The translations under genes were made by a program, and so were the position numbers. A DNA stretch of 64,000 nt from an uncultured bacterium (GTDB lineage: Bacteria > Patescibacteriota > Patescibacteriia > CAIQCM01). The notes beneath the pieces were generated by a model. That model saw only the letters and a list, made by a program, of their open reading frames with translations. It did not search any database and was not told the origin of the DNA. The DNA is taken from positions 131,740 to 195,739 of the forward strand of contig OY970181.1 in NCBI GenBank assembly GCA_963708045.1, written 5' to 3'. Shown here piece by piece: positions 3,113 to 40,341 of this stretch. Every line of letters starts with the position of its first letter. Positions within the stretch are counted from its first letter, which is position 1.

Positions 3113-3403
3113 ATGCTTAGCATTAGATTAACCCGCGTCGGAAAAACCAAAGAGCCTTCATACCGGCTTATTGTTTTAGATAAACGAAAAGACCCATGGG
3201 GCGACTACCTGGAAAACCTCGGCACCGTGAATCGCCGTGGCAAAGAAAAATCATACAAATTGAACGCCGACCGCATTAAATACTGGATTTCCAAAGGCGC
3301 TCAGCCCACTAACCCAGTTTGGAATATGTTGGTTGACCAAAAAATCGTTGTTGGTTCCAAACGCAAGGCGCACACGGGACATAAGGTTGAAGCGGCGAAA
3401 TAA
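3113..3403 (+). CDS. rpsP: 30S ribosomal protein S16
   Basis: MLSIRLTRVGKTKEPSYRLIVLDKRK...: canonical S16 N-terminus. 96 aa. Confidence 0.9.
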   Translation: MLSIRLTRVGKTKEPSYRLIVLDKRKDPWGDYLENLGTVNRRGKEKSYKLNADRIKYWISKGAQPTNPVWNMLVDQKIVVGSKRKAHTGHKVEAAK

Positions 3404-3432
3404 CTTTTAACTGTTAACTTTTAACTTTTTTA
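3404..3432. repeat. Family-B repeat unit
   Basis: AACTTTTAACTGTTAACTTTTAACTTTTTT immediately 3' of rpsP. Confidence 0.5.
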
Positions 3433-4461: not shown

Positions 4462-4643
4462 CAATTTCTCCGCTGTTTGGGAACGCCCAAACTTTTCGCA
4501 ACCCAGGTCTGCTACACGCAACCTGGGTTTTGTGATTTAACGCCCATTGATATATTTCTAAAAATTTGCTATACTAATAGTAACCAGTGCTGGCAGTAGT
4601 CGAACCGGAACTGGTCAAGTACTTGTCATTAACTATAGCTGCT

Positions 4644-4970
4644 ATGGAAATGGAAATGGACCAGCAGTTCGTAGAGTATGTGGTCAAGGGGATCGTTAAT
4701 AACCCTAATGACGTCAGGACAGAAAGAACGGTAGACGAGCGCGGAGTGCTCATCACCCTCTTCATCAATCCGGCGGATATGGGTTATGTGATCGGTCGCC
4801 AAGGCCAGACCGCGCGTTCAATTAGGACACTTCTCCGCATCGTCGGAGCAAAGACCAACGCTCGCGTCAATCTCAAAATCTACGAACCCGAGGAATCCCG
4901 CCGCGCTCATATGTCGGCCGCTGCCGAAGCACCGAGCGAGGACGAGAATCCAATGGATTTAAAAATCTAG
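4644..4970 (+). CDS. khpA: KH-domain RNA-binding protein (KhpA/YlqC-like)
   Basis: ...FVEYVVKGIVNNPNDV...MGYVIGRQGQTARSIRTLL...KI matches the KhpA KH fold. ORF track starts at 4587; start moved to the internal Met cluster. Exact start uncertain. Confidence 0.65.
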   Translation: MEMEMDQQFVEYVVKGIVNNPNDVRTERTVDERGVLITLFINPADMGYVIGRQGQTARSIRTLLRIVGAKTNARVNLKIYEPEESRRAHMSAAAEAPSEDENPMDLKI

Positions 4971-5013: not shown

Positions 5014-5880
5014 TTAAAATTTATTCGTGGCTAAAACGGTTGGATGTTTTTTAATGCCCTCTACATAAAGTCTATGTATCTGCGCCGCGGACAAAGCATC
5101 ATTAAATATCCGCGGCTCATCTATAAATCCGCCAAAAGAAAAACCAGCATTCCCTCCCCATGCACCGCCATAAGGATAAAGCGTACCAATAGCCAAAGGT
5201 ATACTGTTATCTGTTGTTGCCCACGAAGAGATGTTGTGTGTGGCTGTAAGTTTGAGCGAGCCGTCTATGTATATAGAGACAGTTTTTGCAGAATCAACGG
5301 TTGCGGCAACAAATGTCCACTTACCGCTTGGCACAGTGGCGTTTGTAGCGGGTGTATTATAACCCGACACCCCTCCCAGCCCAACATATATTTTTCTGTC
5401 CGCGCCATAACTTAAAGTATAATTATACCCACCATTTCCGTTCCACGGTTTGCTTATTAAAACAGCACCGTTATTTTCTGCGACATCGGGCTTAATCCAA
5501 ATACCTAATGACATATTCCCGCCGCGATATTTAAAACCCGAATAATCATAAGCCTGCACATAATCATTTGATCCATCAAGATAAATTGAATAACCGCTAC
5601 CGCTTGGCGTATCGGTTGACCAAGTTGGACCGTTTAAGAGACTGCCAGTGTGTCCGCTACCCGAAGCATCACTCGCCACTCCTCCCGAGCCTTCGTTAAA
5701 TAACCATATGCCAGCAGGCTCGCCAGCCGTGCGATCAAGATGCGATGCAAACGCCATTCCCGCTGCAATTTTCGCCTTATCCCGAGCGGTTACTAAGGAC
5801 ACCACGGCGATTGATGAAAGAAGACCGACGATGGCAATAACGACGAGAAGTTCAATTAAGGTAAAAGCAGAGCGACGCAT
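5014..5880 (-). CDS. type IV pilin-like protein with C-terminal LamG/concanavalin-A-like domain
   Basis: N-terminal MRRSAFTLIELLVVIAIVGLL prepilin methylation motif with Glu5 and a hydrophobic helix. C-terminal ...IDEPRIFNDALSAAQI... laminin-G-like jellyroll signature. Confidence 0.75.
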   Translation of the reverse strand: MRRSAFTLIELLVVIAIVGLLSSIAVVSLVTARDKAKIAAGMAFASHLDRTAGEPAGIWLFNEGSGGVASDASGSGHTGSLLNGPTWSTDTPSGSGYSIYLDGSNDYVQAYDYSGFKYRGGNMSLGIWIKPDVAENNGAVLISKPWNGNGGYNYTLSYGADRKIYVGLGGVSGYNTPATNATVPSGKWTFVAATVDSAKTVSIYIDGSLKLTATHNISSWATTDNSIPLAIGTLYPYGGAWGGNAGFSFGGFIDEPRIFNDALSAAQIHRLYVEGIKKHPTVLATNKF

Positions 5881-5921
5881 GAATGAATATCTAATTTCTA
5901 ATACTTAATATCTAATCCGAT

Positions 5922-6767
5922 CTATGGAAAAGAGATCTGTCTATTTGTTGACGATGAAATGAGAATTTTGGGGTGCGACAAAACGCTGGCGGCATAATCT
6001 TTTTGTATCGCTTGCGCGGTTAGTGCTTTGGCATAGATCCGGACATTATCAAAATTACCCCAAAAATAATTTGTTGCCACATAACGACCGATCTCCGGCG
6101 CCCCCGTCCCCAAGAACGGACTTGACGGAGAATCGTTCGCGACGAGCGCGCCATCACGGTAAATGCTGCGCTTGTTAGTTGATCGGTTGTAAGTACAAGC
6201 CCAATGATGCCAATTCGTGTCCGTATAGGCAACCGTGTCCAGATCGTTTGAGTAAAAGGCGCAGGTAAAAGCATTCGTCTGCCTGAAACCGACGACCATC
6301 ATAGTGCTGGCACCTACACTTCCCAGCGAAAAGGCGATATCCAATCTATTTATTGCGTTGCGTTTCGCCCAAAAGGAAACCGTGAACGAGTTTGAGGCAA
6401 ACTCGGTGATCGTTCGCGCGGTGGAGGCATATTGGCTTGCGCCGTTCAGGCTAAGTGAACACCCTTTCCCCGATGGCGAATCAGACGACCATTGCGGAGA
6501 ACCGACGGGGGTTCCAATATTTCCACCCCCCGAAGAATCAGCGACGGTTGTGGCGGGAATGCCGACGCCTGTGCAATCGTCAAAATCCCACTGGCCTAAA
6601 ATTTCATCTCCAGCTCCATCAAGAACACTTCTTTCAAAAGATTGCCCGGCCGCAATTTTTGCTTTATCCCGCGCACTGCCAAGCGACACCACCGCGATTG
6701 ACGAAAGAAGGCCGACGATGGCAATGACGACGAGAAGTTCAATTAAGGTGAAGGCGCGACGGGTCAT
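5922..6767 (-). CDS. type IV pilin-like protein with LamG-like domain
   Basis: MTRRAFTLIELLVVIAIVGLLSSIAVVSLGSARDKAKIAAG...FDNVRIYAKALTAQAI. Paralog of 5014-5880. Confidence 0.75.
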   Translation of the reverse strand: MTRRAFTLIELLVVIAIVGLLSSIAVVSLGSARDKAKIAAGQSFERSVLDGAGDEILGQWDFDDCTGVGIPATTVADSSGGGNIGTPVGSPQWSSDSPSGKGCSLSLNGASQYASTARTITEFASNSFTVSFWAKRNAINRLDIAFSLGSVGASTMMVVGFRQTNAFTCAFYSNDLDTVAYTDTNWHHWACTYNRSTNKRSIYRDGALVANDSPSSPFLGTGAPEIGRYVATNYFWGNFDNVRIYAKALTAQAIQKDYAASVLSHPKILISSSTNRQISFP

Positions 6768-6790
6768 TTGTTTAAATATCTAATGTCTAA

Positions 6791-6892
6791 TCCGCCGTCA
6801 TTCCGAGCCTGTCTAGTAGATTTGTCCAAGGCGAGGAATCTCGTAGCCAATTTAAAGACTTTGAGATCCCTCGCTCGCGCTCGGGATGACGC
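6791..6892. repeat. Family-A palindromic repeat
   Basis: GCCGTCATTCCGAGC...GCTCGGGATGACGCC, preceded by the ATCTAATGTCTAATCCG word. Sits in the 5' region of pilin gene 5922-6767. Confidence 0.6.
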
Positions 6893-6946
6893 CTAACAAT
6901 AGACGCTGGCGGGATGCGACGAATATGCTAATATTATATCACGATT

Positions 6947-7609
6947 ATGAAGATAGACTTTGTTTCAATTTTTCCGGAAATGTTTGGGACTTATTTTAAT
7001 GAGTCCATTATGAAACGCGCGGCGGAAAAGCGTCTGATTAAAGTTAAGGCGCACGATTTGCGTAAGTGGGCATCGGGCAAGCACCACAAAGTAGACGATC
7101 GCCCATTTGGTGGCGGCCCCGGAATGGTGATGATGGCGGAGCCGTTTGCGAAAGCGGTTAAAGAGCTAAAAGTTAAAAGTTTAAAGTTAAAAGTTCGTGT
7201 TATCCTAATGTCTGCTTCGGGAAAAACCTTCACTCATAAAGATGCAGTACGGCTTGCCAAGTACAAACACTTAATCTTCCTCTGCCCGCGCTACGAAGGC
7301 GTGGATGCGCGCGTGGAAAAATTTGTTGATGAAAAAATTTCTATTGGCGACTATGTTTTAACCGGCGGCGAACTCCCCGCCATGGTCGTGGCTGACGCAG
7401 TCGTGCGTCATATTCCCGGCGTCCTTGGCAAAGCCGAATCGCTCACCGAAGAATCGCATACAATAGAAGGTGTTACTGAATATCCGCAATACACGCGGCC
7501 GGAAGTTTTTGGCAAACAAAGAGTGCCTGCGGTTTTGCTTTCAGGCGATCATGCGAAGATAGCCGCGTGGAGAAAGAAAAAGATGGGGCAACGAATACCT
7601 AATATCTAA
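6947..7609 (+). CDS. trmD: tRNA (guanine37-N1)-methyltransferase
   Basis: IDFVSIFPEMF, DDRPFGGGPGMVM and SIGDYVLTGGELPAMV are hallmark TrmD (SPOUT) motifs. Confidence 0.9.
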   Translation: MKIDFVSIFPEMFGTYFNESIMKRAAEKRLIKVKAHDLRKWASGKHHKVDDRPFGGGPGMVMMAEPFAKAVKELKVKSLKLKVRVILMSASGKTFTHKDAVRLAKYKHLIFLCPRYEGVDARVEKFVDEKISIGDYVLTGGELPAMVVADAVVRHIPGVLGKAESLTEESHTIEGVTEYPQYTRPEVFGKQRVPAVLLSGDHAKIAAWRKKKMGQRIPNI

Positions 7610-7629
7610 TGTCTAATATCTAATCCGTT

Positions 7630-7745
7630 GGCGTCATCCCGAAGAGCGGGAGCGATGAGGGAACTCAACGTCTCAAATCCACCTCTGCGGTTCCTCGCTC
7701 TAGACAAAACGACCATACGAGCTCGGAATGACGGCAAAAAAAACT
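7630..7745. repeat. Family-A palindromic repeat
   Basis: GGCGTCATCCCGAAGAGCGG...GAGCTCGGAATGACGGC, preceded by CCTAATATCTAATGTCTAATATCTAATCCG. Confidence 0.6.
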
Positions 7746-11087: not shown

Positions 11088-11984
11088 TTATAGATGCGAT
11101 TTTTTACGACGAACGATAAATAATTTTGCTGCGGACAAAAGACCGATAAAGGGTAAGAAAACAAGCAGGCTTCTCATTGGCCACTTGGCGTAAGGATCGG
11201 TTGGTAGTTGCGGCGATAACTTTTCAACTCTAATATTACCGGCATTGTCCACGGCCTTAACCCAAACATGGTTTGATAATTTTTGATCTTTAAGTCGATA
11301 TGGGCTCGTCGCAGTAAGCCACGCGTCGGCCTTGGTTACTCCGTCACGCGTCTCTTGAACTTCGTAATAATCAATGCCCGAATCTTTGTCTTGAGTGCTA
11401 AAAACTAAAAAATATGCGCCATTAAAAAGATCCGGCGATGAAGAAATAACGGGTTTAAATTCTTCTGGCGTAACAGAATCCGCTTTTGTTGAATCGGGCA
11501 ACTGGTTTACGTCCGAACCAAAAGATATAAAAGACCATTCCGCAACTTTGGTTTTGGCCACAGTTGCTTTTCCATCGCTTAGAAGCGCGACCGGTTGTTC
11601 AAGCGTTACCTTTCCCGAGCCTGTTGCTTTTGGCAAAAAAACGATTGAAAAAATCTGACCGCGACTACCTTTAAACCCACCTGGAACAATGCCGGCAAAA
11701 TCAATGCGGTTATTTTCAATCTTTGGTATTTTAGCCCAGAAATTAACAAGTGAGTTGCTGTCATTCAGAAACTTAGCTTCTAGTAAATCATCCGGCCACA
11801 CGACAGCGCCGGAAACAGCGTTTAAAACATTGCCGTCAGCATTAAGTTCAAACGACAAAGTAAACGGACGGCCTTTTTCTATTCTGTCTCTTGTCTGAAA
11901 AGAAAAAGACGCTGCTCTAACCGCAGAGAGTGGTAAGAGCAGGGCAGAACAAACGATTACAATAATGTAAAATATTTTTTTCAT
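11088..11984 (-). CDS. hypothetical secreted protein with C-terminal membrane anchor
   Basis: Signal peptide MKKIFYIIVIVCSALLLPLSAVRA. C-terminal hydrophobic helix followed by RRKKSHL. Confidence 0.5.
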   Translation of the reverse strand: MKKIFYIIVIVCSALLLPLSAVRAASFSFQTRDRIEKGRPFTLSFELNADGNVLNAVSGAVVWPDDLLEAKFLNDSNSLVNFWAKIPKIENNRIDFAGIVPGGFKGSRGQIFSIVFLPKATGSGKVTLEQPVALLSDGKATVAKTKVAEWSFISFGSDVNQLPDSTKADSVTPEEFKPVISSSPDLFNGAYFLVFSTQDKDSGIDYYEVQETRDGVTKADAWLTATSPYRLKDQKLSNHVWVKAVDNAGNIRVEKLSPQLPTDPYAKWPMRSLLVFLPFIGLLSAAKLFIVRRKKSHL

Positions 11985-11987
11985 AAA

Positions 11988-13103
11988 TTAGCCTGTCCAA
12001 TAAAAGGCCATAATACTTAAATCTAATAAATCAACTTTGCCGTCGGCGTTAAGATCGGGCCCAGTTGGCGGGTTTGGGCGTCCGTACCAAAACGCAATAA
12101 CCGAGAAGTCAACCAAATTAATCCGCAGGTCGGCATTAAAATCGCCTTTGTCTTTAAGAATGGCTGACGGTTTTGTAACAATACTTTTATCGCTTACTTT
12201 GAATGTATGTGGATCGCTTAGAACACTAATGTCACCGCCGGAAAGAGCTTTGGTCTGCACAGTGTGATCACCCTTTAAAAGCGCATCGGTAGCCATCTTG
12301 TAAAGATAAACGCCGTCGGCGCTTGCTTTAACTTTAGTAACGAACGGATTATCAGAATTAACCGTGATTTCCACTTCGGCGCTCACTGCGGCTTGGCCAA
12401 AAATAATAATATTTTCTCCTTGCTTAACCTCGGACTTGTCCGTGCTCACGGTCGGCGGCAAAAAAATGCCACTAATCTGCGTCATTGACCCGGCGGTTGT
12501 ATAAATAGGAAAAGTGAATAATGTTGAACGCGCCCCTTGTTTGTCTTCGCCGTAAACGGAAAAAGTGTAATTACCCGACGAAAGACCGGTATATGTAATT
12601 GAAAATTTTGCATCCGACCCGGCAATGGTTGTTGCGGCTAATATTCCATCCTTAAGTAAACTAACTTTGCTTAGCGGATAGGCGCGGCCAGAAACAATCA
12701 CGCCGGTCGTAACGATTGTTAAAGGATACGTTGCGCTACCGCCTCCGCCACCACCGCCGCCTCCCCCTCCTCCACCACCACTGCTTGCAACACAACTTAA
12801 GGTATCAAAAGTACAATCGGCTTTGCAGGCCAACGTGCCGCCGCCGCCAAAACCGCGCGAACCGCAGGTCGCACCGAACAAATCAGTTCCATCACACTGT
12901 TCGTTAATTTCTTTTATTCCATTACCACAAAGATTAAGAATTTGAATTTGAAAATTTGCCGAACCAGCCGCTTTTGTTGTGAGCGGCTGAACTAAAAACA
13001 ATACCGCGCCAAAAACTAGCGCCGCCACGGTTGTGGCGGCAAACATTTTCGTAAACCCCTTTTGTAATCTAGTTTGCTCGTTCATTAAACTAAATGACGA
13101 CAC
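11988..13103 (-). CDS. secreted protein with Cys-rich N-domain, poly-Gly linker and C-terminal dockerin-like repeats
   Basis: TM/signal near N-terminus, G14 tract, and two D-x-N-x-D-G-x-V-D-L-L-D-like segments (DFNADLRINLVDFSVIAFW; DLNADGKVDLLDLSIMAFYW). Confidence 0.5.
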   Translation of the reverse strand: MSSFSLMNEQTRLQKGFTKMFAATTVAALVFGAVLFLVQPLTTKAAGSANFQIQILNLCGNGIKEINEQCDGTDLFGATCGSRGFGGGGTLACKADCTFDTLSCVASSGGGGGGGGGGGGGGSATYPLTIVTTGVIVSGRAYPLSKVSLLKDGILAATTIAGSDAKFSITYTGLSSGNYTFSVYGEDKQGARSTLFTFPIYTTAGSMTQISGIFLPPTVSTDKSEVKQGENIIIFGQAAVSAEVEITVNSDNPFVTKVKASADGVYLYKMATDALLKGDHTVQTKALSGGDISVLSDPHTFKVSDKSIVTKPSAILKDKGDFNADLRINLVDFSVIAFWYGRPNPPTGPDLNADGKVDLLDLSIMAFYWTG

Positions 13104-13107
13104 CGAT

Positions 13108-16100
13108 TTAATTAGCTGTAATTGAAAGCACCATATTAACGGAATAGCTACCCACTGGCTGTTCAGCCGGAATTTTCTGGCTAATAGCTACGTCCCTGAG
13201 TGTCCAGTCGCCAACATTATTTGCGGCAGCGGATGCCGAAAGTAAAGTAATATTATTGGTCACGCCTTCACTAAATGCCGCCGCCCCACCCTTAGAAATA
13301 TTTGCCGTCGTGCAACCACTGCACCCACCAACAGCCAAAGTCGCGACCGAAGGATCAATCGTCATCTGGCCACCGAGCGAATCAGTATCCCCGCCGTCGG
13401 CACACCCCGCACTCGTTGAATCGTTGAAATCATAATTTACTGTTCCACCATTCCAATAGTCCGTTGGCGCTTGCGCCGCAAGCGTTAATGTCCAACCGCC
13501 GGCAACACCAGTGTTGTTTACATAGATCTGCTCTGATGATGAACCAAAACTGCCGGTAACATTTTGACAAGAAAAATTAAAATTTGTTGAGCTCATCGCC
13601 ATACTCGGATTAGCGACCGGCGCATAGCTTGCATTAACAATGTCGGCGGTTAAAGAGCCGCCCGACGGATTTAATTCGTCATTGTCCGCGTTCATCGCTG
13701 ACTCAATATTCGCCCAGGATGTTTCAGCATTATGAACGTGCCAAAATGTGAAGCTAACCGTTTGACCCGGAGCGACCGAAGACCAGGTTTTTTCAAATCC
13801 GGTCTGGTCGGCTGTCTGAGTTCCGTGAGAAGCCGTTATTTGAATTGGCCACTCAGCATAAGGAGCGGTTGTCCTACCCAAAAACGCCTCGACGGCAAAT
13901 ATTTGGTAATCGGGGAGATTGTTCTTATCCCAAATCATTCCCATATTGATGAATGTCACCTTATCGTAAGCCGTTTGCCAAAATTTTGACCAGCCAGAAG
14001 GAGAAACCCTTTGCTCCATGATGACGTCGTTAGAAGGGTCGTTGGCAAATCTACCAGCATCATTTGCTGCCCTGTCTGTTCCGTGCCACTGTTCACGTTC
14101 CCAGACCATCGGATATTTATGAGTAGAGCTGCCACCATTATAAAAATCATATGTATTCTTTATATATCTTTTGCCAGAATAATAATTCTGTGTTCTTGTC
14201 GCTGTGATACCATTGTCCAACTGCTGAGCCCAACCTCCAACAACTCCACTAACTGCCGTATTATCGGAGTGCTGAACAATCGTAAAACCGGTATTGCTTT
14301 CGGCCGTTATCCAACTAGCATTTTCATTCGGACTCCACTTTATATCATGTTGATATGGATTAGCTGAGCCCGAAGTATCAGCTCTTATTATGTCATCAAC
14401 ATGAACAGCGACTCTTTCCATACAGTCGGTAGACTGGTCGGCTCCTCCGCCAACTGGGTGAGCCCGAGATTCGGCTTGTAAACCAGCTTGCTCACATTCA
14501 TTTATTGAAGAACAAGCTAAATTGTTATCGGTTGTTGAAGTTGGTTTTGGATAAATAAATGTAGATAAATACTGATTAGCAATATACAAACCATTTGAAC
14601 CCCAGCGCTGGCCCATGTCAAACGTTTGAGTCCAGTTATATCTTGTCGCAAAAAGGTCGGTATCGGTATCAAAAGCGATATCAACATCCGTTGAAACCGT
14701 TCCTGTAGTAGCCATCTGCGGGAGTGAAGCGAATTGAATGTAAAGCGTATGCGAGGAAGTCTCCCACCACCATGCGTTGACGCCAGTGGACTGAGCCGAC
14801 CCCGGAGAGACAGATGCCCCGTTTACGGTTATAGCAAAATTAGTCGGAGAAGAAGTGATCGGATGAATTGGAACCGCCACGGCAATATTCGTACCTGTTC
14901 CGCTTTTCATTCCAAACCCGAAATCGCTTATGGTTGTATGCCAGTGGTCAGTTGACCAGATAGAATTAAAATCCGTATAATTAGCCGGGTTTTGAACCGC
15001 GTCCATTGAAGTTCTTTTAACAGTCATCACAATAGTAAAGGTACTTGCGCTGCTCGTATAATCTATAGAAGGAAAACCAGCGTTATTATCCAACTGCACA
15101 ACAACACTAAAGGAACCGTTATAAGTCTTTGGGTCATCACAACCCATACAAATATTGGAACCGGGATAAATAACCCCTTCAAAACGACTATTGCCGGCGT
15201 TCCATGTCATCGGAGTAGAAAATCCTTGCCCAGCGATCGTGGTGACTTGGGCGCGGGCGTAAGGATAATTAGCATAGGTCAAACCGCCGGTTAGTGTGCC
15301 GTAAACTGGAACCGCCCCCGCCCATCCGTCGGTCGTTTTGCCCAAAGAACTGGCGATGCCGGGTACCACGGGAGCCGGATTTAGAGCAACGGCAAAAGCA
15401 TGCTTGACTGTGGTACCGGTCGTTGAGCAGGTCGTATCAATATTTCCGGTCGCACCCGAACCAGTCCACGTCATACTATCAATCGTCCTTGCAAAATCGG
15501 AAGCAGTTATCCAGTAATCGTTATGCTCAACCCAATCAGTGGTAGGAACTGATGGTTTTGTAAAGTTACGAGTTGTATTACTTGAATAGAAGCTAGCGAA
15601 ATTTAAAAGCACCGAACCAGCGGCCGATACGTTCATACTGGCCGCCCTAACCGTTGTATTACTGGTAATATATTCGGTATTTGAATAAGTATCTATGGGG
15701 TTTGCGGTGTTAAAACCCCCACGGAAAGTTGCAACGGTTATGGCCGTACTTCCAGAAGAAGCAAAACTCCAAGTGTAAGAAGCCCCTTCTCCCGAAGCCA
15801 ATTTCCAATAAAGCATTTGATGATAGGTTGTAGAATACTGGTGCTGGGCCAACAAAGTCCACCCGGTTGGAACCGAATCAACCGCTCCGTTATTGTTGCG
15901 CATAATCAAAGTAAACATGATATCGTTGTTCGCCGTATTGGTCGGTTTGTTAACCACGGCGTTGAACGGGGTGGTTTGGGATGCGGCATTATAGTGAGCA
16001 ACGTTTATAAAAGAGGTTGCCGCCATAGCCTCATGAATTCTTAATTCTTCCGGCAAGTTGCGCAAAGAAGAAAAATTATCAACAACGTTCGGATCATTTT

Positions 16101-16251
16101 CATTTTGAGCAAGCCATAATTTATCAACGATGTTACGTGTGTTAATGTAGGAATCTATCGCCGAAGAAAACAAATAATAAGGAACATTGGAAAAAATGAC
16201 CCCGAAAATGACCAGCGACACCACTAAAAATTTAAGAATTCTTGTTTTCAT
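13108..16251 (-). CDS. large S/T/N-rich cell-surface protein with WxL-like C-terminal domain
   Basis: Signal peptide. C-terminal about 190 aa are homologous to the whole of ORF 18474-19154 and carry two W-T-L motifs (GGWTLTLAAQAP; GDWTLRDVAISQ). Confidence 0.6.
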   Translation of the reverse strand: MKTRILKFLVVSLVIFGVIFSNVPYYLFSSAIDSYINTRNIVDKLWLAQNENDPNVVDNFSSLRNLPEELRIHEAMAATSFINVAHYNAASQTTPFNAVVNKPTNTANNDIMFTLIMRNNNGAVDSVPTGWTLLAQHQYSTTYHQMLYWKLASGEGASYTWSFASSGSTAITVATFRGGFNTANPIDTYSNTEYITSNTTVRAASMNVSAAGSVLLNFASFYSSNTTRNFTKPSVPTTDWVEHNDYWITASDFARTIDSMTWTGSGATGNIDTTCSTTGTTVKHAFAVALNPAPVVPGIASSLGKTTDGWAGAVPVYGTLTGGLTYANYPYARAQVTTIAGQGFSTPMTWNAGNSRFEGVIYPGSNICMGCDDPKTYNGSFSVVVQLDNNAGFPSIDYTSSASTFTIVMTVKRTSMDAVQNPANYTDFNSIWSTDHWHTTISDFGFGMKSGTGTNIAVAVPIHPITSSPTNFAITVNGASVSPGSAQSTGVNAWWWETSSHTLYIQFASLPQMATTGTVSTDVDIAFDTDTDLFATRYNWTQTFDMGQRWGSNGLYIANQYLSTFIYPKPTSTTDNNLACSSINECEQAGLQAESRAHPVGGGADQSTDCMERVAVHVDDIIRADTSGSANPYQHDIKWSPNENASWITAESNTGFTIVQHSDNTAVSGVVGGWAQQLDNGITATRTQNYYSGKRYIKNTYDFYNGGSSTHKYPMVWEREQWHGTDRAANDAGRFANDPSNDVIMEQRVSPSGWSKFWQTAYDKVTFINMGMIWDKNNLPDYQIFAVEAFLGRTTAPYAEWPIQITASHGTQTADQTGFEKTWSSVAPGQTVSFTFWHVHNAETSWANIESAMNADNDELNPSGGSLTADIVNASYAPVANPSMAMSSTNFNFSCQNVTGSFGSSSEQIYVNNTGVAGGWTLTLAAQAPTDYWNGGTVNYDFNDSTSAGCADGGDTDSLGGQMTIDPSVATLAVGGCSGCTTANISKGGAAAFSEGVTNNITLLSASAAANNVGDWTLRDVAISQKIPAEQPVGSYSVNMVLSITAN

Positions 16252-16270
16252 TTCTTGTTTTCACGCTTAA

Positions 16271-17254: not shown

Positions 17255-17323
17255 AAAGCAAAAACCCGAAAAAAATCCGGGTTTTTGCGGAACAAAAAAG
17301 TTGAGAAAAATTTCTTAAGACCA

Positions 17324-18463: not shown

Positions 18464-18473
18464 AGATATAACT

Positions 18474-19279: not shown

Positions 19280-19849
19280 TTAATTTTGCCAACTTGCTCC
19301 GCCCGGCGTCCAAACCGCCCAGCGATAAGCGCCACGAATTGTGGCACCCCACGGCGCAGGATCGGCAAAAGGATCGGTAAGCGACAGCGTTCCTTCTGGC
19401 GTACAGGCGGCAACTATTTTATAATCAATGCCATCAGATTTGTACGCGTAACAACTCCACGATGGCGCACTGGTGCATTCGCCACGAGCCGATGTTGGAT
19501 TAACTTTATTTTCATTTGGATCGTGCGGAAGAACAGCCAAATAAGTTGGCGCCAGATCGGGAATCCAACCACCCGAACCAGTGTCACTTTTTGCCGTCCA
19601 GTTTCCTCCTTCGTTGCATATTCCCCAAAAAGCCGAGCCCGTCAATGGGTACCCAGCATGATCCGCATAATATAACTCCAATGCCTTAGCAATTTGTATA
19701 AGATTAGCCTTGCGCTGAGTATTTCGCGCGTTCATTCTTACCGAACTCAAAGACACAACCGCAATCATAGAAAGCAGTCCAATAATCGCGATCACGACAA
19801 GGAGTTCAACTAGAGTAAAGGCGCGACGGGGCATGACGGATAACATCAA
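19280..19849 (-). CDS. type IV pilin-like protein
   Basis: MPRRAFTLVELLVVIAIIGLLSMIAVVSL prepilin N-terminus. About 185 aa. Confidence 0.75.
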   Translation of the reverse strand: MMLSVMPRRAFTLVELLVVIAIIGLLSMIAVVSLSSVRMNARNTQRKANLIQIAKALELYYADHAGYPLTGSAFWGICNEGGNWTAKSDTGSGGWIPDLAPTYLAVLPHDPNENKVNPTSARGECTSAPSWSCYAYKSDGIDYKIVAACTPEGTLSLTDPFADPAPWGATIRGAYRWAVWTPGGASWQN

Positions 19850-19853
19850 ATGA

Positions 19854-20654
19854 CTAATGTTGCGTGTCTAATGTCGACGACGAAGCAAGAATTTGCGAAT
19901 ACGAAGACGATTCTTCGGCGTAGATTTTTTTAATTTCAGAAGCAGTTAGTGAGCGGTTAAAGATTCTAACGCTATCTATAAGGCCGCTAAAAAATGTAGC
20001 TCCGGCATATATTCCTATGCCGGCGCCAGAATAATTGGCATTATTCAGAGCGGACACAGTCCCCGACCCTGCTAAACCTCCGTCCAAATATACTGAATAA
20101 GAAGTTCCACTTTGGTCAATGACCAGCTGGTGCCAAGCATTTGTGCTTACGCTCCTAGAAACCGTCCCCACCGAAAGATTAATGTCCGGGTACCACGAAA
20201 TCGCGATATTGCTCACGCGTATCAGCGTCGACCTGTACGAAAATATAGGACGAGTTGCGGCGTCTGCGGGCTTGAACCAAAGAGAATACACGAGCGACGA
20301 CGCGGTTGTGTTCACATACGGTATGCTCACATAAGCCGTTGAACCATTGAACGACAGCGAACAGCCCTTGCCGCTCGGAGTATCGGTTGACCACACTGCT
20401 GCTCCGCCGACCAAGGTTCCATTCAACCCATTCCCACTGGTATCATTTGCCGTCGTACCGGAACATTCATCAAAATCCCATTGCGCGAAAATATCATCAC
20501 CTACAACGTGTTGAACCGATTGCTCATAAGAGATACCTTTCGCAAGCCGCGCCTTTTCCCTAGCCGTTGTTAGCGAAACAACCGCGATTGAAGAGAGTAG
20601 CCCAATAATCGCGATCACAACAAGAAGTTCAATTAGGGTAAAAGCACGTTTCAT
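19854..20654 (-). CDS. type IV pilin-like protein with LamG-like domain
   Basis: MKRAFTLIELLVVIAIIGLLSSIAVVSLTTAREKARLA...IDSVRIFNRSLTASEIKKIY. Confidence 0.75.
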   Translation of the reverse strand: MKRAFTLIELLVVIAIIGLLSSIAVVSLTTAREKARLAKGISYEQSVQHVVGDDIFAQWDFDECSGTTANDTSGNGLNGTLVGGAAVWSTDTPSGKGCSLSFNGSTAYVSIPYVNTTASSLVYSLWFKPADAATRPIFSYRSTLIRVSNIAISWYPDINLSVGTVSRSVSTNAWHQLVIDQSGTSYSVYLDGGLAGSGTVSALNNANYSGAGIGIYAGATFFSGLIDSVRIFNRSLTASEIKKIYAEESSSYSQILASSSTLDTQH

Positions 20655-20672
20655 TAACTTTTTTAAAAAAAA

Positions 20673-21491
20673 TTATTTATTAACCGCTGTTAACTTGCCC
20701 GGAAGTTCGGCCAAATACATTTGCCTAACATCCATTGCAGTCAATGCGTTACCAAAAAAATGAACAGAGTCAATAAACCCGACAAGCCCTTGGCTAAGAT
20801 AGCCTATCGCCACAAACCCACTAGCATTTAAATCGTTGGCACTTAAGGCGCTTATATCCGCGGAACCGCGCAGTTTGCTATCCAAATAAACATTCATTAT
20901 GTTAGCGCTTCTGTCTATAGACAATGCCAAAAAATGCCATACGCCATCATTATATTTTCCAGATGCATAAGCAACAATGCCCGTATTATGCAATACGCAG
21001 TCCACTGTACCAGATGATATACTTCCAATTTCACACATCATTCCATTGGCGTTACCGGCGTCGGATTTTCGCAACATTACTCCACGATCAGTTTGTGAAG
21101 TTTTAAACCAAAAAGTTCTGGTCGCGTTGCCGGTGCGGACATCCAAACTGTCGTTATCTGAAATTCTGACATAGCCCGTGGCGGTTGAAGCAAGCGACGT
21201 TCCACTTCCGCTCGGAGTATCCGTTGACCAAGTTGGTCCACCAACCAAAGTGCCGCTGTTCCCGTAATTAGAAGAATCAACAGTGGCCGTGCCCGACCCT
21301 TCGTCCAAGTCCCATTGCCCAACCAATGAATCCCCCTCGGCGCGATCAATTTGCGCAGCAAATTGTTTTGCCGCCGCAAGCCGCGCCTTTTCCCTAGCCG
21401 TTGTTAGCGAAACAACCGCGATTGTTGAAAGCAATCCGATAACTGCGATTACGACAAGGAGTTCAATTAGGGTAAAGGCGCGACGGTTCAT
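20673..21491 (-). CDS. type IV pilin-like protein with LamG-like domain
   Basis: MNRRAFTLIELLVVIAVIGLLSTIAVVSLTTAREKARLAAA...IDSVHFFGNALTAMDVRQMY. Confidence 0.75.
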   Translation of the reverse strand: MNRRAFTLIELLVVIAVIGLLSTIAVVSLTTAREKARLAAAKQFAAQIDRAEGDSLVGQWDLDEGSGTATVDSSNYGNSGTLVGGPTWSTDTPSGSGTSLASTATGYVRISDNDSLDVRTGNATRTFWFKTSQTDRGVMLRKSDAGNANGMMCEIGSISSGTVDCVLHNTGIVAYASGKYNDGVWHFLALSIDRSANIMNVYLDSKLRGSADISALSANDLNASGFVAIGYLSQGLVGFIDSVHFFGNALTAMDVRQMYLAELPGKLTAVNK

Positions 21492-21630
21492 ATTGATACA
21501 GTATCATTTTTGTTATGGTATATAAAATTGGCGCTCTTCGATTTTAATAGAGTTATTTGAAGAGATTCAGCGTAAAATCACAATCAAATTTTTAGTGTCT
21601 AAAAATTTTTTTAAAACTAACTGTAATATA

Positions 21631-22089
21631 TTACGTCCCGTTCGGGGAAATACAATAATTATAAACCGCACCGCCTGAGCAACCAGAATAATCATAGGCG
21701 TTTCCGGTTGCTTTTTCCATATTTGCACATAGAATATAGCGCGTTTTATTATCTATATTCTGGTATAAATAATCACCAATTTGGTTATGTTGAGTCGGGT
21801 CTAACGGAGTACGAGCCAAAAACGATACAATGTCCGACTGAAAACCCGCCCCGAGACCGCCCGCGGGGTTGGAAATGAACGTGCACCAGCCGGCGGAGTT
21901 GCGGGGCAAATAACTGTTGACATCGGCAAATAACTCAATCGCCTGCGAAATTTGCCGCAGGTCGGCCATTCGCTTGGCATCGCGAGCTTTTACTCGCGAA
22001 GCACTCAAAGATACGACCGCGATTGTTGAAAGCAGTCCGATAATCGCGATTACGACCAGAAGTTCAATTAGGGTAAAAGCCTGTTTCAT
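21631..22089 (-). CDS. type IV pilin-like protein (small)
   Basis: MKQAFTLIELLVVIAIIGLLSTIAVVSL. 152 aa. Confidence 0.75.
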   Translation of the reverse strand: MKQAFTLIELLVVIAIIGLLSTIAVVSLSASRVKARDAKRMADLRQISQAIELFADVNSYLPRNSAGWCTFISNPAGGLGAGFQSDIVSFLARTPLDPTQHNQIGDYLYQNIDNKTRYILCANMEKATGNAYDYSGCSGGAVYNYCISPNGT

Positions 22090-22205: not shown

Positions 22206-22760
22206 TTAATTTCCCTGATGATCAACGTAGAGCATTGGACTCCTCGCGGGCGGGACGGTCGGACTAAACGGGTCGCAAAAATAATAACTGCCGTCTAAAT
22301 AAACATTATCCCTATAACCGCGCGATGCGCATCGGTCCGGATCAGATGTGTTTTCCAAATTAGCGATCAAATCATACTTACTACCGGATGCATTACTATA
22401 GTAAGCATAAGTAAAATTTCCTTGAAATGTCGGATCCGTAATATTCTTATTTATCGGGTCAGCGGGCAGAACAGTAATATAGGTTTGAAGCATTGTTTGC
22501 AAACTTAACCACCGCGCATTAGAGCAGGTGTCCAAATCGGTCGTGGCGCTGCAGGCCCAAGGAGATGCTACAACGGGAAAATGACCATTGTCGTCATAAT
22601 AAAGATCCAGAGCGAGTTTTATTTGCCGTAAATCAGACTTCCTTTTCACATCACGTGCCGCTATCCTGCTTTTATCCATTACAACAACCGCAATCGTTGA
22701 AAGGAGGCCGATGATCGCGATCACGACTAAGAGTTCAATTAAGGTAAAAGCGCGCTTCAT
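22206..22760 (-). CDS. type IV pilin-like protein (small)
   Basis: MKRAFTLIELLVVIAIIGLLSTIAVVV. 184 aa. Upstream region paralogous to that of 21631-22089. Confidence 0.75.
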   Translation of the reverse strand: MKRAFTLIELLVVIAIIGLLSTIAVVVMDKSRIAARDVKRKSDLRQIKLALDLYYDDNGHFPVVASPWACSATTDLDTCSNARWLSLQTMLQTYITVLPADPINKNITDPTFQGNFTYAYYSNASGSKYDLIANLENTSDPDRCASRGYRDNVYLDGSYYFCDPFSPTVPPARSPMLYVDHQGN

Positions 22761-23641: not shown

Positions 23642-23644
23642 CGT

Positions 23645-37075: not shown

Positions 37076-37882
37076 TTAATTTCCCATCGCGACCTGATTT
37101 TTTCTTTTTTCTTCGGCGTATAATTTATGTACTTGCATAGCGGTGAGTGCCCCCGCATAAACGTGAATTTCATCCATAAAAGCATTGGCGGCATAAGAAA
37201 CAATTCCACCTATTTTAAGATCAACGCTGTTATTCCAACTATTTCCAACCGTCGTCGCGGTTCCTGCAAAATGCCCGTCAATGTAAAGGTTGCGCGTATT
37301 AGCACCGTTAACTGTTCCGACAATTTGATGCCACTTTCCTAAATCATCTCCGCGCTTAGAGACAAAAGGAGTGTTAGAGACACTGGAAGCGGCCAACAAA
37401 AACCCATTATTATTAAAACCATATGCCGAAGAAAGACCAAATACTGCACTATCGCCTTTAAGTATATAAACGGAAGGGGTGGAGACATTCTGATAAACCC
37501 AAAAAGATACCGTGAAATTATCCGCGAGATCCAAACTGCTTGAATCGGGAACGCTTATATATTTTCCAACGGCATTAAAATTTAAAGAGCACCCTGATCC
37601 GGAGGGCGTGCTTGTTGACCATATTGGAGAACCAACAAAAGTACCGTTATTATTATTACCCGACGAATCACTTACGGTTGTGCCCGAGCATTCGTCAAAA
37701 TTCCAGTATCCAGCAGTCTGATCACCGACGGCGCGATCAACACTAGCGGCAAACTGTTTGCCAGATGCAACCCTCGCCTTTTCGCGCGCACCGCCGAGCG
37801 ACACCACCGCGATACTAGAAAGCAGACCAATCACGGCAATGACGACAAGAAGTTCAATTAAAGTGAAGGCGCGATGGGACAT
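37076..37882 (-). CDS. type IV pilin-like protein with LamG-like domain
   Basis: MSHRAFTLIELLVVIAVIGLLSSIAVVSLGGAREKARVASGKQFA...DEIHVYAGALTAMQVHKLYAEE. Confidence 0.75.
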   Translation of the reverse strand: MSHRAFTLIELLVVIAVIGLLSSIAVVSLGGAREKARVASGKQFAASVDRAVGDQTAGYWNFDECSGTTVSDSSGNNNNGTFVGSPIWSTSTPSGSGCSLNFNAVGKYISVPDSSSLDLADNFTVSFWVYQNVSTPSVYILKGDSAVFGLSSAYGFNNNGFLLAASSVSNTPFVSKRGDDLGKWHQIVGTVNGANTRNLYIDGHFAGTATTVGNSWNNSVDLKIGGIVSYAANAFMDEIHVYAGALTAMQVHKLYAEEKRKNQVAMGN

Positions 37883-37892
37883 GACGGAATAT

Positions 37893-38732
37893 CTAATGAC
37901 TAATCCGGCTAGTGAGCGACGATTTGTTTATTGTTTCCAGTGCGATTTTATTTTCATCACTTTCTTCAGCGTACAATTTATGAACCTGCATGGCGGTTAA
38001 CGCTCCGGAATACACATGAATCTCATCCAAAAGGGCGTTTGCGGAATATAGCGTGTTCCCGCCAATTAAAAGATCAATGCTATTATTCCAACTCGTCCCC
38101 GCTCCCGTCGCCGTGCCGGCAAAATGACCGTCTAAATAAAAACTTCGTACATTTGAACCATTGACAGTACCGACAAATTGATGCCAAACACCCGTATCAC
38201 TTCCGCGCCTAGGTGCATAAGGATCAAGACTGACATTGTATGTAGCCAACATAAAACCATTACCACCAAAACCATACGCTGGAGCAAGCCCACCCAATGA
38301 GTCACTGCCCTTAAGCATAAATATGGATGTATTCACATTGTTCTGGTAAACCCAAAAAGATATTGTGAAGTTGTTGGAGAGATCCAAACTACTTGAATCA
38401 GGAATGTTTATATAATTAGCGGCGGCAGTAAAATTCAAAGAACAACCCGAGCCGGAGGGTGTATTTGTTGACCATGTTGGAGAGCCGACGAAAGTGCCGT
38501 TATTATTACCCGACGAATCGTTTGCGGTCGTGCCCGAGCATTCGTCAAAATTCCAATACCCAACGGTCTGGTCACCGACTGCACGGTCAACTGTGGTGGC
38601 AAACTGTTTACCAGACGCAACCCTCGCCTTTTCGCGCGCACCACCAAGCGACACCACCGCGATACTAGAAAGCAGACCAATCACGGCAATGACGACAAGA
38701 AGTTCAATTAGGGTAAAGGCACGACGGTTCAT
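37893..38732 (-). CDS. type IV pilin-like protein with LamG-like domain (tandem paralog)
   Basis: MNRRAFTLIELLVVIAVIGLLSSIAVVSLGGAREKARVASGKQFA...DEIHVYSGALTAMQVHKLYAEE. Start moved to MNRRAF. Confidence 0.75.
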   Translation of the reverse strand: MNRRAFTLIELLVVIAVIGLLSSIAVVSLGGAREKARVASGKQFATTVDRAVGDQTVGYWNFDECSGTTANDSSGNNNGTFVGSPTWSTNTPSGSGCSLNFTAAANYINIPDSSSLDLSNNFTISFWVYQNNVNTSIFMLKGSDSLGGLAPAYGFGGNGFMLATYNVSLDPYAPRRGSDTGVWHQFVGTVNGSNVRSFYLDGHFAGTATGAGTSWNNSIDLLIGGNTLYSANALLDEIHVYSGALTAMQVHKLYAEESDENKIALETINKSSLTSRISH

Positions 38733-39205
38733 GGATATAAAATATAATAATTTGGCCAAACATTGTGACAACTAGAAGAACAACTCATTTTGTCTGGGTC
38801 ATTTGTTCCTTCAATAGTCATCGCTAAACAATATTGTTCGTTGCTATTTTTTTGATAAACATAGACTGGCCAATTTCCACAGGTTACGGTTCGCGATCCG
38901 CGCTTTTCAAAATCAGGATCTTGGGGCAAAGGGTTAAGATATGGAGCAAGCGCCGCCGCAAGATAGCCGGTAGATACCCAACACGCCCAATCACTAGCAC
39001 AGGCGCCGACGCTTCCTGGATAGGCACTATTGTCGGCGTAATACATTTCTAAAGCCTTCGTTAACGCTCTCATATCTGTCTTTCTTCTAACGTCACGGGC
39101 TTTTGCTCTCGTGCTACTTAACGAGACTACCGCGATTGTGGAAAGCAAACCAATAATCGCAACGACGACAAGAAGTTCAATTAAAGTGAAGGCACGGCGT
39201 TTCAT
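38729..39205 (-). CDS. type IV pilin-like protein (small)
   Basis: MKRRAFTLIELLVVVAIIGLLSTIAVVSL. Start moved to MKRRAF. Overlaps the next gene by 4 nt. Confidence 0.7.
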   Translation of the reverse strand: MKRRAFTLIELLVVVAIIGLLSTIAVVSLSSTRAKARDVRRKTDMRALTKALEMYYADNSAYPGSVGACASDWACWVSTGYLAAALAPYLNPLPQDPDFEKRGSRTVTCGNWPVYVYQKNSNEQYCLAMTIEGTNDPDKMSCSSSCHNVWPNYYILYP

Positions 39206-39207: not shown

Positions 39208-39747
39208 TTACCAGCTTCGTGCGTCGGGAGTAGAAACCTGCCAAGCCCAAGTTAGTCTCACCGGATCAACGAATGGATCAGTCGCACTCATTATACCTTC
39301 GGGAGTACAGTGGGCTAATAATTTATAATCTGTCCCGTTTGACCTGTAATAATAACAATTAGAACTCGGCGACGTTAGACAGCCGGCGTTTGCACTACTG
39401 GTATTTCCCTTGCCGCTATTTGGGTCATGCGGCAGTTGCGCCATATAAGAAGAAAAATTTGGTATCCACGCGCCAGCACCAGAGTCGGGATATGAATTAA
39501 CGCTTGCACAATTACCAAACCATGAAAGCACACCCGTAACTGGTGGCACCAGTGTAGGCGGATATCCATTATTATCGGCATAATATAATTCTAACGCTTT
39601 TGAAACTTGTACTAGGTTTGCCTTACGCTGAGCGTTCCTTGAATTCATTCTTGTCGCACTTAAAGACACCACCGCGATCGTACCAAGGAGGCCGATAATA
39701 GCGATGACGACAAGAAGCTCAATTAAAGTGAAAGCGCGATGGGACAT
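39208..39747 (-). CDS. type IV pilin-like protein (small)
   Basis: MSHRAFTLIELLVVIAIIGLLGTIAVVSL. Paralog of 19280-19849. Confidence 0.75.
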   Translation of the reverse strand: MSHRAFTLIELLVVIAIIGLLGTIAVVSLSATRMNSRNAQRKANLVQVSKALELYYADNNGYPPTLVPPVTGVLSWFGNCASVNSYPDSGAGAWIPNFSSYMAQLPHDPNSGKGNTSSANAGCLTSPSSNCYYYRSNGTDYKLLAHCTPEGIMSATDPFVDPVRLTWAWQVSTPDARSW

Positions 39748-39849: not shown

Positions 39850-40341
39850 TTAATTTAAATTCACTATACATTCAATAAAGTTAGCGTTCACTGTGCGAAC
39901 CGTTCCCATTCCACAAGTTGCCGGGGGGGTAAGTAAATAATCTATGGCAGGTTGACCACCGTAAGATGCTGATGGAGAGCCGTTGTAAATATAACCGCCA
40001 TAGCCGCGTGAATTTTTATCATCAGGATCGGTGGGTTTGTTTATGAAAGGAGTAAAGAAAGCATCCACTGTTCCGCTTACAGGATATATAGAAAAACCGC
40101 CCGTGCATGAGGAACTTATACATTTCCAAAAATTACCGCCCGTATCTGGATACGCGCCATTGGCATCAAACCCTAGGTTAAAAGCAGTCACTAGTTGTTT
40201 TACATCGGCAATTCGTTTGGCGTTTAGAGATCGGCTTCGCGCTGTACTCAAACTCATCACCGCAATCGTGCCAAGGAGGCCGATAATCGCGATGACGACC
40301 AGAAGTTCAATTAAGGTGAAAGCGCGATGAGTGTTAAGCAT
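39850..40341 (-). CDS. type IV pilin-like protein (small)
   Basis: MLNTHRAFTLIELLVVIAIIGLLGTIAVMSL. Confidence 0.7.
   Translation of the reverse strand: MLNTHRAFTLIELLVVIAIIGLLGTIAVMSLSTARSRSLNAKRIADVKQLVTAFNLGFDANGAYPDTGGNFWKCISSSCTGGFSIYPVSGTVDAFFTPFINKPTDPDDKNSRGYGGYIYNGSPSASYGGQPAIDYLLTPPATCGMGTVRTVNANFIECIVNLN

Follow-up and report, generated by a model that had tools for sequence, protein, structure and literature searches.

Prepilin-type proteins with a predicted LamG jelly-roll in the position of the pilin head form a paralogous family in an uncultured patescibacterium

Why would one bacterial genome hold a dozen type IV pilin-like genes within a short stretch of DNA, half of them joined to lectin-like domains, and what might such proteins do? 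The question is raised by a stretch of 64,000 nucleotides (hereafter the window) from an uncultured bacterium of the Patescibacteriota (Patescibacteriia; CAIQCM01), which covers positions 131,740 to 195,739 of contig OY970181.1 in assembly GCA_963708045.1. An initial annotation of the window described twelve paralogous type IV pilin genes, six of them classical pilins and six fused to C-terminal LamG-like domains, and proposed that they form a diversifying adhesin repertoire. A six-frame scan of the window with the pattern [GA]F[TS][LI][IVL]E[LVIM] returned exactly 12 matches, all on the minus strand and at the positions given in that annotation. When extended to their start and stop codons, these resolve as had been described into six short pilins of 152–184 aa and six long proteins of 266–288 aa (here called LamG-pilins); the 12 genes together account for 8,058 nt (12.6%) of the window. 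The genes lie in three clusters: cluster 1 contains 5014-5880 and 5922-6767, cluster 2 has five genes at 19280-22760, and cluster 3 has five at 37076-40341. When the window's 766 stop-to-stop fragments with a length of 40 aa or more were searched, filters off, with a hidden Markov model (HMM) of the 12 proteins, these 12 alone were picked up (E = 1e-47 to 1e-86). The next-best match among the fragments has E = 0.04, so that, chance matches excluded, the window holds no further or decayed copies. Outside the window, the same 1,188,223-bp (1.19-Mb) contig encodes at least four more pilins: two LamG-pilins (P0037, 271 aa; P0094, 272 aa) and two short pilins (P0248, 175 aa, 69% identical to 39208-39747; P0328, 178 aa). 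The genome total is thus at least 16 pilin genes, of which at least eight encode LamG-pilins.

Each of the 12 proteins begins with a basic leader of 3–5 residues that ends in Ala at position -1 and is followed by Phe1. Pfam N_methyl (PF07963) matches all of them at 27.0–31.6 bits (gathering cutoff 21.2), which supports the assignment to a type IV pilin family, and the NCBIfam model TIGR02532 likewise matches every member. In an alignment of the 12, the residues A(-1), F1, T2, L3, E5, L6, L7, V8, V9, A11, G14, L15, L16, I19, A20 and V21 are invariant. The (K/R)RAFTL start with Glu5 that had been called almost invariant is indeed nearly so, except that residue -2 is not always Lys or Arg (KQAF, RSAF and HRAF exist); across 105 family members, residue -1 is Gly in 53, Ala in 40 and Ser in 11. 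The N-terminal parts match the PDB sequences of geopilin, PulG, PilE and PAK pilin.

A profile of the short pilins matches geopilin (3e-17) and PulG (5wda, 7e-11, positions 6–103) in the PDB, as well as M. xanthus PilA, Thermus PilA4 and PilA5, PAK pilin and PilE. With the short pilin 38729-39205 as query, a search for homologues gave 3,513 matches, and many of these have PF08334 (T2SSG) or are named 'type II secretion system protein G' by JGI; the query is also the only protein of the window to be matched by T2SSG, at 18.7 bits against a cutoff of 21. Its AlphaFold2 (AF2) model, based on an alignment of 80 sequences, has a predicted local distance difference test score (pLDDT) of 81.7 and the shape of a lollipop, with a helix at residues 8–59 and strands at 116–121, 124–129 and 153–157. 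The label of classical pilins appears supported for the short proteins by sequence and, more loosely, by predicted fold. Two of them, 19280-19834 and 39208-39747, constitute a 'CTPEG' subfamily with 58% identity.

The NCBIfam models of GspG, GspH, ComGC and Myxococcus PilA also match all 12 proteins and that of ComGE matches eight, far under the equivalog cutoffs (for the first member, 27.4 bits against 88.85 with the GspG model TIGR01710 and 19.3 against 75 with ComGC), and the GspG-, GspH- and ComG-type matches are largely limited to the pilin helix alpha1. Together with the JGI label on homologues and the proposal that type IV pili in the candidate phyla radiation (CPR) take up DNA (PMC5220378), these sub-threshold matches would be in keeping with a pseudopilus of the competence (Com-type) or type II secretion kind that serves mainly in DNA uptake or protein export and has the LamG subunits as accessories and not as host adhesins. 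We consider this very unlikely, as the scores are so low and come mostly from alpha1, as T4P-2 pilin mutants of Nanosynbacter lyticus TM7x had wild-type competence (PMC11623550), and as DNA uptake leaves at least eight lectin-type subunits unexplained.

What, then, is attached to alpha1 in the long proteins? Pfam Laminin_G_3 (PF13385) matches all six at 52.5–88.8 bits (cutoff 27.6), so that both domain families expected from the initial annotation, N_methyl in 12 of 12 and Laminin_G_3 in 6 of 6 long proteins, are detected; the two signatures quoted there are likewise present (DEIHVYAGALTAMQVHKLYAEE in 37076-37882 and IDEPRIFNDALSAAQI in 5014-5880). Weak matches to Toxin_R_bind_N (19.5–23.4 bits, under the 23.8 cutoff) indicate the same fold. 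The AF2 model of 5014-5880, which used an alignment of 105 homologues, has a pLDDT of 90.7 and a predicted template modelling score (pTM) of 0.86. It contains the alpha1 expected of a pilin as a helix at residues 8–51 (pLDDT >90), and after a gap of about 3 residues this is followed by strands from 55–58 through 250–259 and two short C-terminal helices. When the model is compared to the PDB with Foldseek, about 230 columns align to ConA-like jelly-rolls with a probability of 1.00. The best match is domain 4 of AbnA (5hon, E = 3e-11), others are the HCN domains of botulinum and tetanus toxins and NTNH and the lectin domains of trans-sialidases, and pilins are absent from the top 50. At the sequence level, the LamG-pilin family profile matches the solved LamG-type domains 4qvs (1e-27, positions 59–262) and 5hon (4e-20, positions 58–262), and its positions 3–72 match geopilin, gonococcal PilE and PAK pilin. 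The alpha-beta head of a pilin is not found in the six long proteins, where the jelly-roll starts at residue 55 and there is no pilin sheet. Since the helix spans residues 8–51, the strands begin at 55 and the profile match at 58, model and profile indicate that the LamG domain stands in for the pilin head and is not added to one. The fusion originally described is therefore correct as to the presence of a ConA/LamG domain in half of the family and needs revision as to its placement, directly after alpha1. We regard it as close to certain that the 12 genes encode prepilin-type proteins and that six of these contain a LamG jelly-roll.

Column entropy over 105 homologues of the LamG-pilins is 0.81 bits in alpha1N, 1.76 bits in alpha1C, 1.6–2.0 bits at residues 55–110 and 2.5–3.3 bits at residues 111–250, and returns to 1.6–2.0 bits at residues 251–260, with about 1.6 bits in the last strand (G-x-I-D-E-x-R-I). 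A constrained helix-proximal part and a variable centre are what would be expected of a shared assembly interface combined with a variable exposed surface. Cys64 and Cys97 (in FDECSG and GxGCSL) covary, with both present in 34 homologues, neither in 56 and one in 15 (Fisher 1.4e-14, kinship ignored); in the window, both occur in four long proteins and neither in two. This suggests a Cys64–Cys97 disulfide and an extracytoplasmic location. The LamG-pilins would also be expected to bind glycans, because the homologous domain 4 of AbnA is described as a carbohydrate-binding module (CBM), being a ConA-like, type-B-CBM-like module with an octahedral Ca ion (PMC9110388). An identity with TafC of the haloarchaeal Tat-fimbria was rejected: the match, at 59.8 bits where the cutoff is 410, involves the LamG part alone, a likeness at the level of the domain.

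The combination of PF07963 and PF13385 is found in the six window proteins and is precomputed for nearly all of the at least 120 homologues listed, among whose database labels are 'prepilin-type N-terminal cleavage/methylation domain-containing protein' and 'LamG-like jellyroll fold domain-containing protein'. Identical proteins are present in source samples such as ERR15459707 and ERR12035931. The named homologues come mainly from Paceibacterota, Taylorbacteria, Uhrbacteria and other metagenome-assembled genomes (MAGs) of the Patescibacteria group, and Kaiserbacteria and Saccharibacteria are also represented among the matching genome loci. This distribution, along with the 1.19-Mb length of the source contig, makes an origin in the CPR likely. 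A search for related loci with [GAS]FTLIELLV gave 80 loci from many phyla, most of which share the N-terminus only; a handful are related over the full length, and these are in Kaiserbacteria, Paceibacterota, Saccharibacteria, Phycisphaerae and Pirellulales. In MAGs of the Planctomycetes–Verrucomicrobia–Chlamydiae group (Phycisphaerae, Pirellulales, Planctomycetota), tblastn covers most of an alpha1+LamG protein at four loci (L004, L007, L016, L040) with 25–27% identity, and the headless design may extend beyond the CPR. A scan of 1.84 billion representative proteins for the alpha1+LamG architecture was dominated by LamG repeats: its top 150 matches are giant multi-LamG proteins, in which the repeat unit corresponds to profile positions ~55–270 and occurs in up to 37 copies per protein, and its total of 910,130 matches measures LamG abundance and is not a count of the architecture.

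Is the repertoire still diversifying, as was first proposed? Head identities are 30–40% among the long paralogues and 22–52% among the short ones, the exception being the tandem pair 37076-37882 and 37893-38732, whose heads are 69% identical (72% overall in the identity matrix). A neighbour-joining tree was built from 106 proteins, a set taken from homologues of 5014-5880, and in it five of this genome's eight LamG paralogues have their nearest neighbour in another genome. For 5014-5880 itself, 22 foreign proteins are closer than the nearest paralogue of its own genome, the best of them at 66%, 61% and 59% identity, whereas identity to its own-genome paralogues does not exceed 41%. Exceptions are the two members of the tandem pair, each nearest to the other, and 5922-6767, which in this set of homologues of 5014-5880 lies nearest to 19854-20654. 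Even the tandem pair has a synonymous divergence (dS) of 0.91, with a nonsynonymous divergence (dN) of 0.18 and a dN/dS of 0.20. Positive or diversifying selection was rejected, as dN/dS is 0.12–0.40 in every segment of this sole measurable pair. With foreign relatives closer for most paralogues and a tandem dS of about 0.9, ongoing diversification is unsupported; the sequences point to a repertoire that is diverse but old and stably inherited, with no diversification in place.

The near-identity of the N-termini also does not derive from general gene conversion, the other process for which a phylogeny of the paralogues had been suggested as a check. In the region coding for alpha1N, mean pairwise identity is 0.79 at the first codon position, 0.91 at the second and 0.475 at the third, and where two genes encode the same amino acid they use the same codon only 47% of the time. 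With synonymous sites randomised to this extent, the N-terminus must be held by selection at the protein level, and neither general conversion nor recent duplication explains it. Local 5' conversion between neighbouring genes is possible, because dS in the tandem pair is 0.39 in codons 1–55 and at least 0.74 elsewhere; adjacent pilin pairs also share greater 5' identity. A diversity-generating retroelement acting on the pilins was considered and rejected: the bAvd-like gene at 35280-35642, situated between yebC and ruvC, is not accompanied by a reverse transcriptase.

These measurements bear on whether the LamG-pilins are polymerised at all. They could be surface lectins that, once the leader is cleaved, use alpha1N only as a membrane anchor or a short pseudopilus stub and serve in the capture of polysaccharide nutrients or in envelope contact. 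Such a role would fit with genes that are scattered among housekeeping genes and have no pilus machinery nearby, with the wide occurrence of the LamG unit in giant non-pilin surface proteins of up to 37 copies, and with the report that most CPR bacteria carry multiple concanavalin/lectin surface proteins (Castelle et al., 2017; PMC5220378), a study in which type IV pilus genes were also found to be common in the CPR. It nevertheless seems unlikely to us. Glu5 is strict and alpha1N is near-invariant across old paralogues despite the randomised synonymous sites, which argues for selection beyond membrane anchoring, and the LamG-pilins share operons with short pilins.

The layout of the clusters gives a further indication of how the two kinds of protein may be related. 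The LamG genes lie behind other pilin genes, with gaps of -4 to 139 nt. An extended -10 promoter-like 12-mer, TAGTGnTATAAT, has three exact copies in the window, where 0.01 would be expected; because the pattern was picked after sight of the sequences, this statistic is merely indicative. The copies are on the minus strand at 22828-22839, 22130-22141 and 40381-40392, 40–79 nt upstream of a short-pilin ATG in each case, and the element is found solely before the three short pilins 22206-22760, 21631-22089 and 39850-40341; the LamG genes have no such element. Because each has its own promoter-like element, these three are the best candidates for major subunits. A scan for the sigma-70 consensus found sites no more frequent than in shuffled sequence.

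Could the LamG-pilins instead be the principal subunits, which polymerise through alpha1, singly or as a mixture, into a lectin-sheathed filament on the plan of archaeal pilins and archaellins? In all six, Glu5 is present and alpha1N is identical to that of the short pilins; the ~3 residues between alpha1 and the jelly-roll, in a model with a pTM of 0.86, place the LamG domain at the head position; and the alpha1-proximal strands are conserved, as a packing interface would be. In relatives, moreover, LamG-pilin genes stand alone among housekeeping genes with no adjacent short pilin. We judge this arrangement quite unlikely, given that at least eight divergent paralogues would be unusual for major subunits and that the strongest promoter-like elements precede the short pilins and not the LamG-pilins. 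To our knowledge, a head of ~230 residues also exceeds that of any characterised bacterial major pilin.

The reading we favour, and hold to be reasonably probable, is that a type IV machine whose genes lie elsewhere in the genome processes and assembles all of these proteins, the short ones as the shaft and the LamG-pilins as low-abundance, probably distal, glycan-binding subunits. Starting from the pilin signal, Glu5, alpha1, the LamG fold, the paralogue ages and the gene context observed here, we infer processing, co-assembly, low abundance or tip position, and glycan binding. A prepilin peptidase would cleave the leader, and one common assembly machine would pull the subunits from the membrane into the filament by alpha1. 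The short GspG-like proteins would form the pilus shaft, and the LamG-pilins would join it as a small minority, most probably at the tip or close to it, a location suggested by analogy with PilB and PilC of Streptococcus sanguinis. Each LamG-pilin would then show a distinct glycan-binding surface, and the cell would hold a fixed panel of lectins for host or surface polysaccharides.

Several observations weigh against this reading. The characterised modular pilins (S. sanguinis PilB and PilC, TM7x PilX1) retain a head and the LamG-pilins do not, which makes the packing analogy with them weaker. Glu5 in all members and a spacing of only ~3 residues between alpha1 and LamG fit incorporation along the shaft as well. 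Glycan binding is what fold and family homology would predict, and LamG domains bind proteins and steroids too. For the short pilin 38729-39205, the Foldseek search gave no significant match, although the three best are pilins (E = 0.6–1.8). Finally, T2SSE, T2SSF, PilM/N/O and Peptidase_A24 are unmatched among the ~50 other open reading frames (ORFs) of the window that were scanned, with no PilB, PilC, PilD, PilM or PilT, which bears out within the window the earlier remark that pilus machinery is absent nearby. A PilB query from a Zambryskibacteria locus (L023) gave at least 120 matches, and those listed are all at least 71% identical and lie on contigs other than the source contig. In relatives, orthologues of 5014-5880 lie single or paired between ftsH and smpB, again away from machinery. 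At other CPR loci, short pilins adjoin a 575–587-aa ORF with a secretion-ATPase Walker A motif (GxTGSGKS/T), and the ORF beside the short pilin at L023 is a PilB homologue of the GspE/PulE family (PF05157 + PF00437).

The individual genes, all on the minus strand, are as follows. In cluster 1, the LamG-pilins 5014..5880 (288 aa; the subject of AF2 and Foldseek) and 5922..6767 (281 aa) score 28.4 and 27.0 bits with N_methyl and 88.8 and 72.9 bits with Laminin_G_3. The neighbours of the cluster, on the opposite strand, are a KH-domain gene (4587-4970) and the gene 6947-7609, which is taken to be trmD from its N-terminal sequence alone. Cluster 2 comprises the 'CTPEG' short pilin 19280..19834 (184 aa, N_methyl 30.0 bits), the LamG-pilins 19854..20654 (266 aa; N_methyl 28.4, Laminin_G_3 67.6 bits) and 20673..21491 (272 aa; 30.0 and 52.5 bits), and two short pilins with their own promoter-like elements, 21631..22089 (152 aa, N_methyl 28.3 bits, with TAGTGATATAAT at 22130-22141) and 22206..22760 (184 aa, N_methyl 28.7 bits, with TAGTGATATAAT at 22828-22839). 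The latter, a candidate major pilin, has a terminator-like hairpin (22169-22184) on its 3' side. Cluster 3 comes after rpoB and rpoC. Its first gene, downstream of rpoC, encodes the short pilin 39850..40341 (163 aa, N_methyl 30.7 bits, with TAGTGGTATAAT at 40381-40392), and this is followed by the 'CTPEG' short pilin 39208..39747 (179 aa, N_methyl 28.8 bits), the short GspG-like pilin 38729..39205 (158 aa, N_methyl 31.6 bits, the one with the sub-cutoff T2SSG match), the LamG-pilin 37893..38732 (279 aa, Laminin_G_3 71.8 bits) and, as last gene, its tandem duplicate 37076..37882 (268 aa, Laminin_G_3 66.5 bits). The cluster ends at a GC-rich terminator-like hairpin (37036-37055).

Several pilin genes are preceded by heptanucleotide arrays, (ATTAGAY)n, of 2–4 copies. 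In four pilin genes the array ends 4–8 nt short of the ATG, at 5886..5916 (minus strand), 6778-6791, 37891-37904 and 39753-39776, and a degenerate copy precedes 19280-19834. Genes with an array lack a Shine-Dalgarno sequence, and copy number varies from gene to gene. The corresponding 18-mer has 9 occurrences in the window (up to 3 mismatches) against 0.05 expected, and Tandem Repeats Finder lists period-7 rows. Further arrays are at 7594-7624 (minus strand) and 55448-55461 (plus strand), the second of which precedes a 129-aa membrane protein (55470-55859) that starts with MSH, as do two of the pilins. Relatives are without (ATTAGAY)n arrays and have TATAAT-like hexamers 6–9 nt before the ATG instead. 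A part in phase variation or expression tuning is conceivable. One could go further and picture the headless alpha1-LamG proteins as self-polymerising into alternative lectin-coated pili of distinct sugar specificities, the choice among which is perhaps set by the variable-copy (ATTAGAY)n arrays close before their start codons, a scheme to which we give little credence.

Period-7 arrays as such occur throughout the window and are not specific to pilins: 19 were found, 17 of them intergenic, where the non-coding share of the window is ~16%. Most are (AAAAGTT)n or its complement; examples of period-7 arrays lie at 1539-1567, 3401-3429, 35267-35300, 35657-35691, 48494-48521, 48556-48579, 55857-55885, 55908-55942, 63100-63130 and 63145-63173. 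Several adjoin start codons, namely those of malic enzyme, ruvC, rpoC and efp, with (AAGTTAA)n upstream of recA, and some form inverted pairs that could fold into heptad-built hairpins. A literature search found no account of such period-7 arrays in the CPR. The bAvd-like gene mentioned above (23S_rRNA_IVP, 35280-35642) is flanked by inverted arrays, (TAACTTT)x4.9 and (AAAAGTT)x5, and lies wholly inside a potential long stem (35267-35691). Two intergenic arrays of TTAGGGT/AGGGTTT with 4.3–4.6 copies, at 30606-30637 and, between rpoB and rpoC, at 44817-44846, have the plant-type telomere unit (TTTAGGG)n. With up to 1 mismatch allowed, a GC-rich 11-mer, GGGATGACGCC, has 8 occurrences where 0.92 would be expected, at 6883-6893, 7630-7640, 48771-48781, 49598-49608, 55430-55440 and three one-mismatch sites. 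Three copies adjoin ATTAGAY arrays inside a longer shared TCCCTCATCGCTxCxGCTCTTCGGGATGACGCC, and this may be an intergenic element resembling repetitive extragenic palindromes or miniature inverted-repeat transposable elements.

Cluster 2 lies between an rve-family transposase gene (23645-24586) and a block of secreted and surface proteins. The region immediately upstream (23078-24586, minus strand) contains a 187-aa ORF in addition to the transposase gene (313 aa), and the two might provide a means of mobilising the cluster. The block directly downstream (11088-19154, minus strand) encodes a 226-aa signal-peptide protein, a WxLIP_PGBD+LysM protein, a beta-lactamase-family protein, a 1047-aa protein with no Pfam match, a Big_6/dockerin-like protein and a 298-aa protein with a C-terminal transmembrane anchor, and looks like a WxL-type cell-surface locus. 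Elsewhere on the minus strand, 25546-27804 encodes a 752-aa secreted protein with at least four cysteine-rich repeats like those of Stig1 (PF04885, 108.5 bits), a family named after plant stigma proteins. The 1420-aa product of 57137-61399, also on the minus strand, has an N-terminal transmembrane or signal segment, no Pfam match and repeated 'YGNG.FVAVG'-like motifs, which suggests a beta-propeller-type surface protein.

Of the attachment devices of CPR/Patescibacteria, type IV pili have the best support. Against this background, at least eight divergent LamG-pilins with orthologues conserved in related genomes make a concrete candidate set for host recognition. Replacement of the head by a LamG domain concerns a whole widespread family, and bears on how bulky subunits enter type IV filaments. 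Current views are not overturned by these findings, as comparison with known systems illustrates. The short proteins share with GspG/PulG pseudopilins and T4a major pilins an alpha1 with F1 and E5 and, in the predicted model, a lollipop shape, and differ in that the NCBIfam equivalog cutoffs are missed and the fold search is non-significant. Archaeal type IV pilins and archaellins have a class III signal peptide, alpha1 and then an all-beta sandwich, with Ig-like heads. The LamG-pilin design, in which alpha1 would run straight into a beta-sandwich, is alike as a functional analogy alone, no sequence relationship of the LamG-pilins to archaeal pilins or archaellins having been detected.

The closest counterparts by domain content are the modular pilins, defined as a pilin module, a short linker and an extra module, which Raynaud et al. 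collected in an InterPro search for IPR012902 proteins with extra domains (Raynaud et al., 2021; PMC8179133). That catalogue holds more than 1,200 proteins in 264 architectures, lists PF13385 as one of the carbohydrate-binding modules found in its 15 most frequent ones and includes several representatives from CPR lineages; it is sequence-based, and the CPR proteins in question are known from sequence alone. The Pfam architecture, N_methyl + PF13385, is the same as that described here. The difference is that the pilin module is here cut to alpha1, with the LamG domain in the head position after a gap of ~3 residues.

The lectin module of S. sanguinis PilC was shown to bind sialylated glycans, and PilC joins PilA and PilB in a complex at the tip, where it is proposed to act in adhesion (Shahin et al., 2023; PMC9934059). 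The LamG-pilins resemble it in having a class III signal peptide and a module of the ConA-like lectin/glucanase superfamily. Yet PilC, at 52.8 kDa, has a small distorted pilin sheet, an Ig-like module and then the galectin-like lectin module (PMC9934059), whereas the LamG-pilins are ~29 kDa and have neither head nor Ig module, and PilC lies outside the 60 best PDB sequence matches of the LamG-pilin profile. In the CPR itself, PilX1 of TM7x is a jelly-roll, L-type-lectin-like minor pilin, and host binding can be inhibited by sugars (Grossman et al., 2024; PMC11623550). It is, like the LamG-pilins, a CPR pilin with a lectin-like beta-jelly-roll domain and a proposed binder of host glycans. PilX1 is, however, a lollipop pilin with an extra C-terminal domain that NCBI CD-Search does not recognise, whereas the LamG-pilins are headless and have a clear PF13385 domain; TM7x has one lectin-type pilin per pilus system and this genome has at least eight LamG-pilins. 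The LamG-pilin as a type is thus already known, the CPR included, with its architecture catalogued and lectin-type minor pilins characterised in two systems. What is new here is the presence of at least eight of them in 1.19 Mb, as old and separately conserved paralogues, and the explicit replacement of the pilin head.

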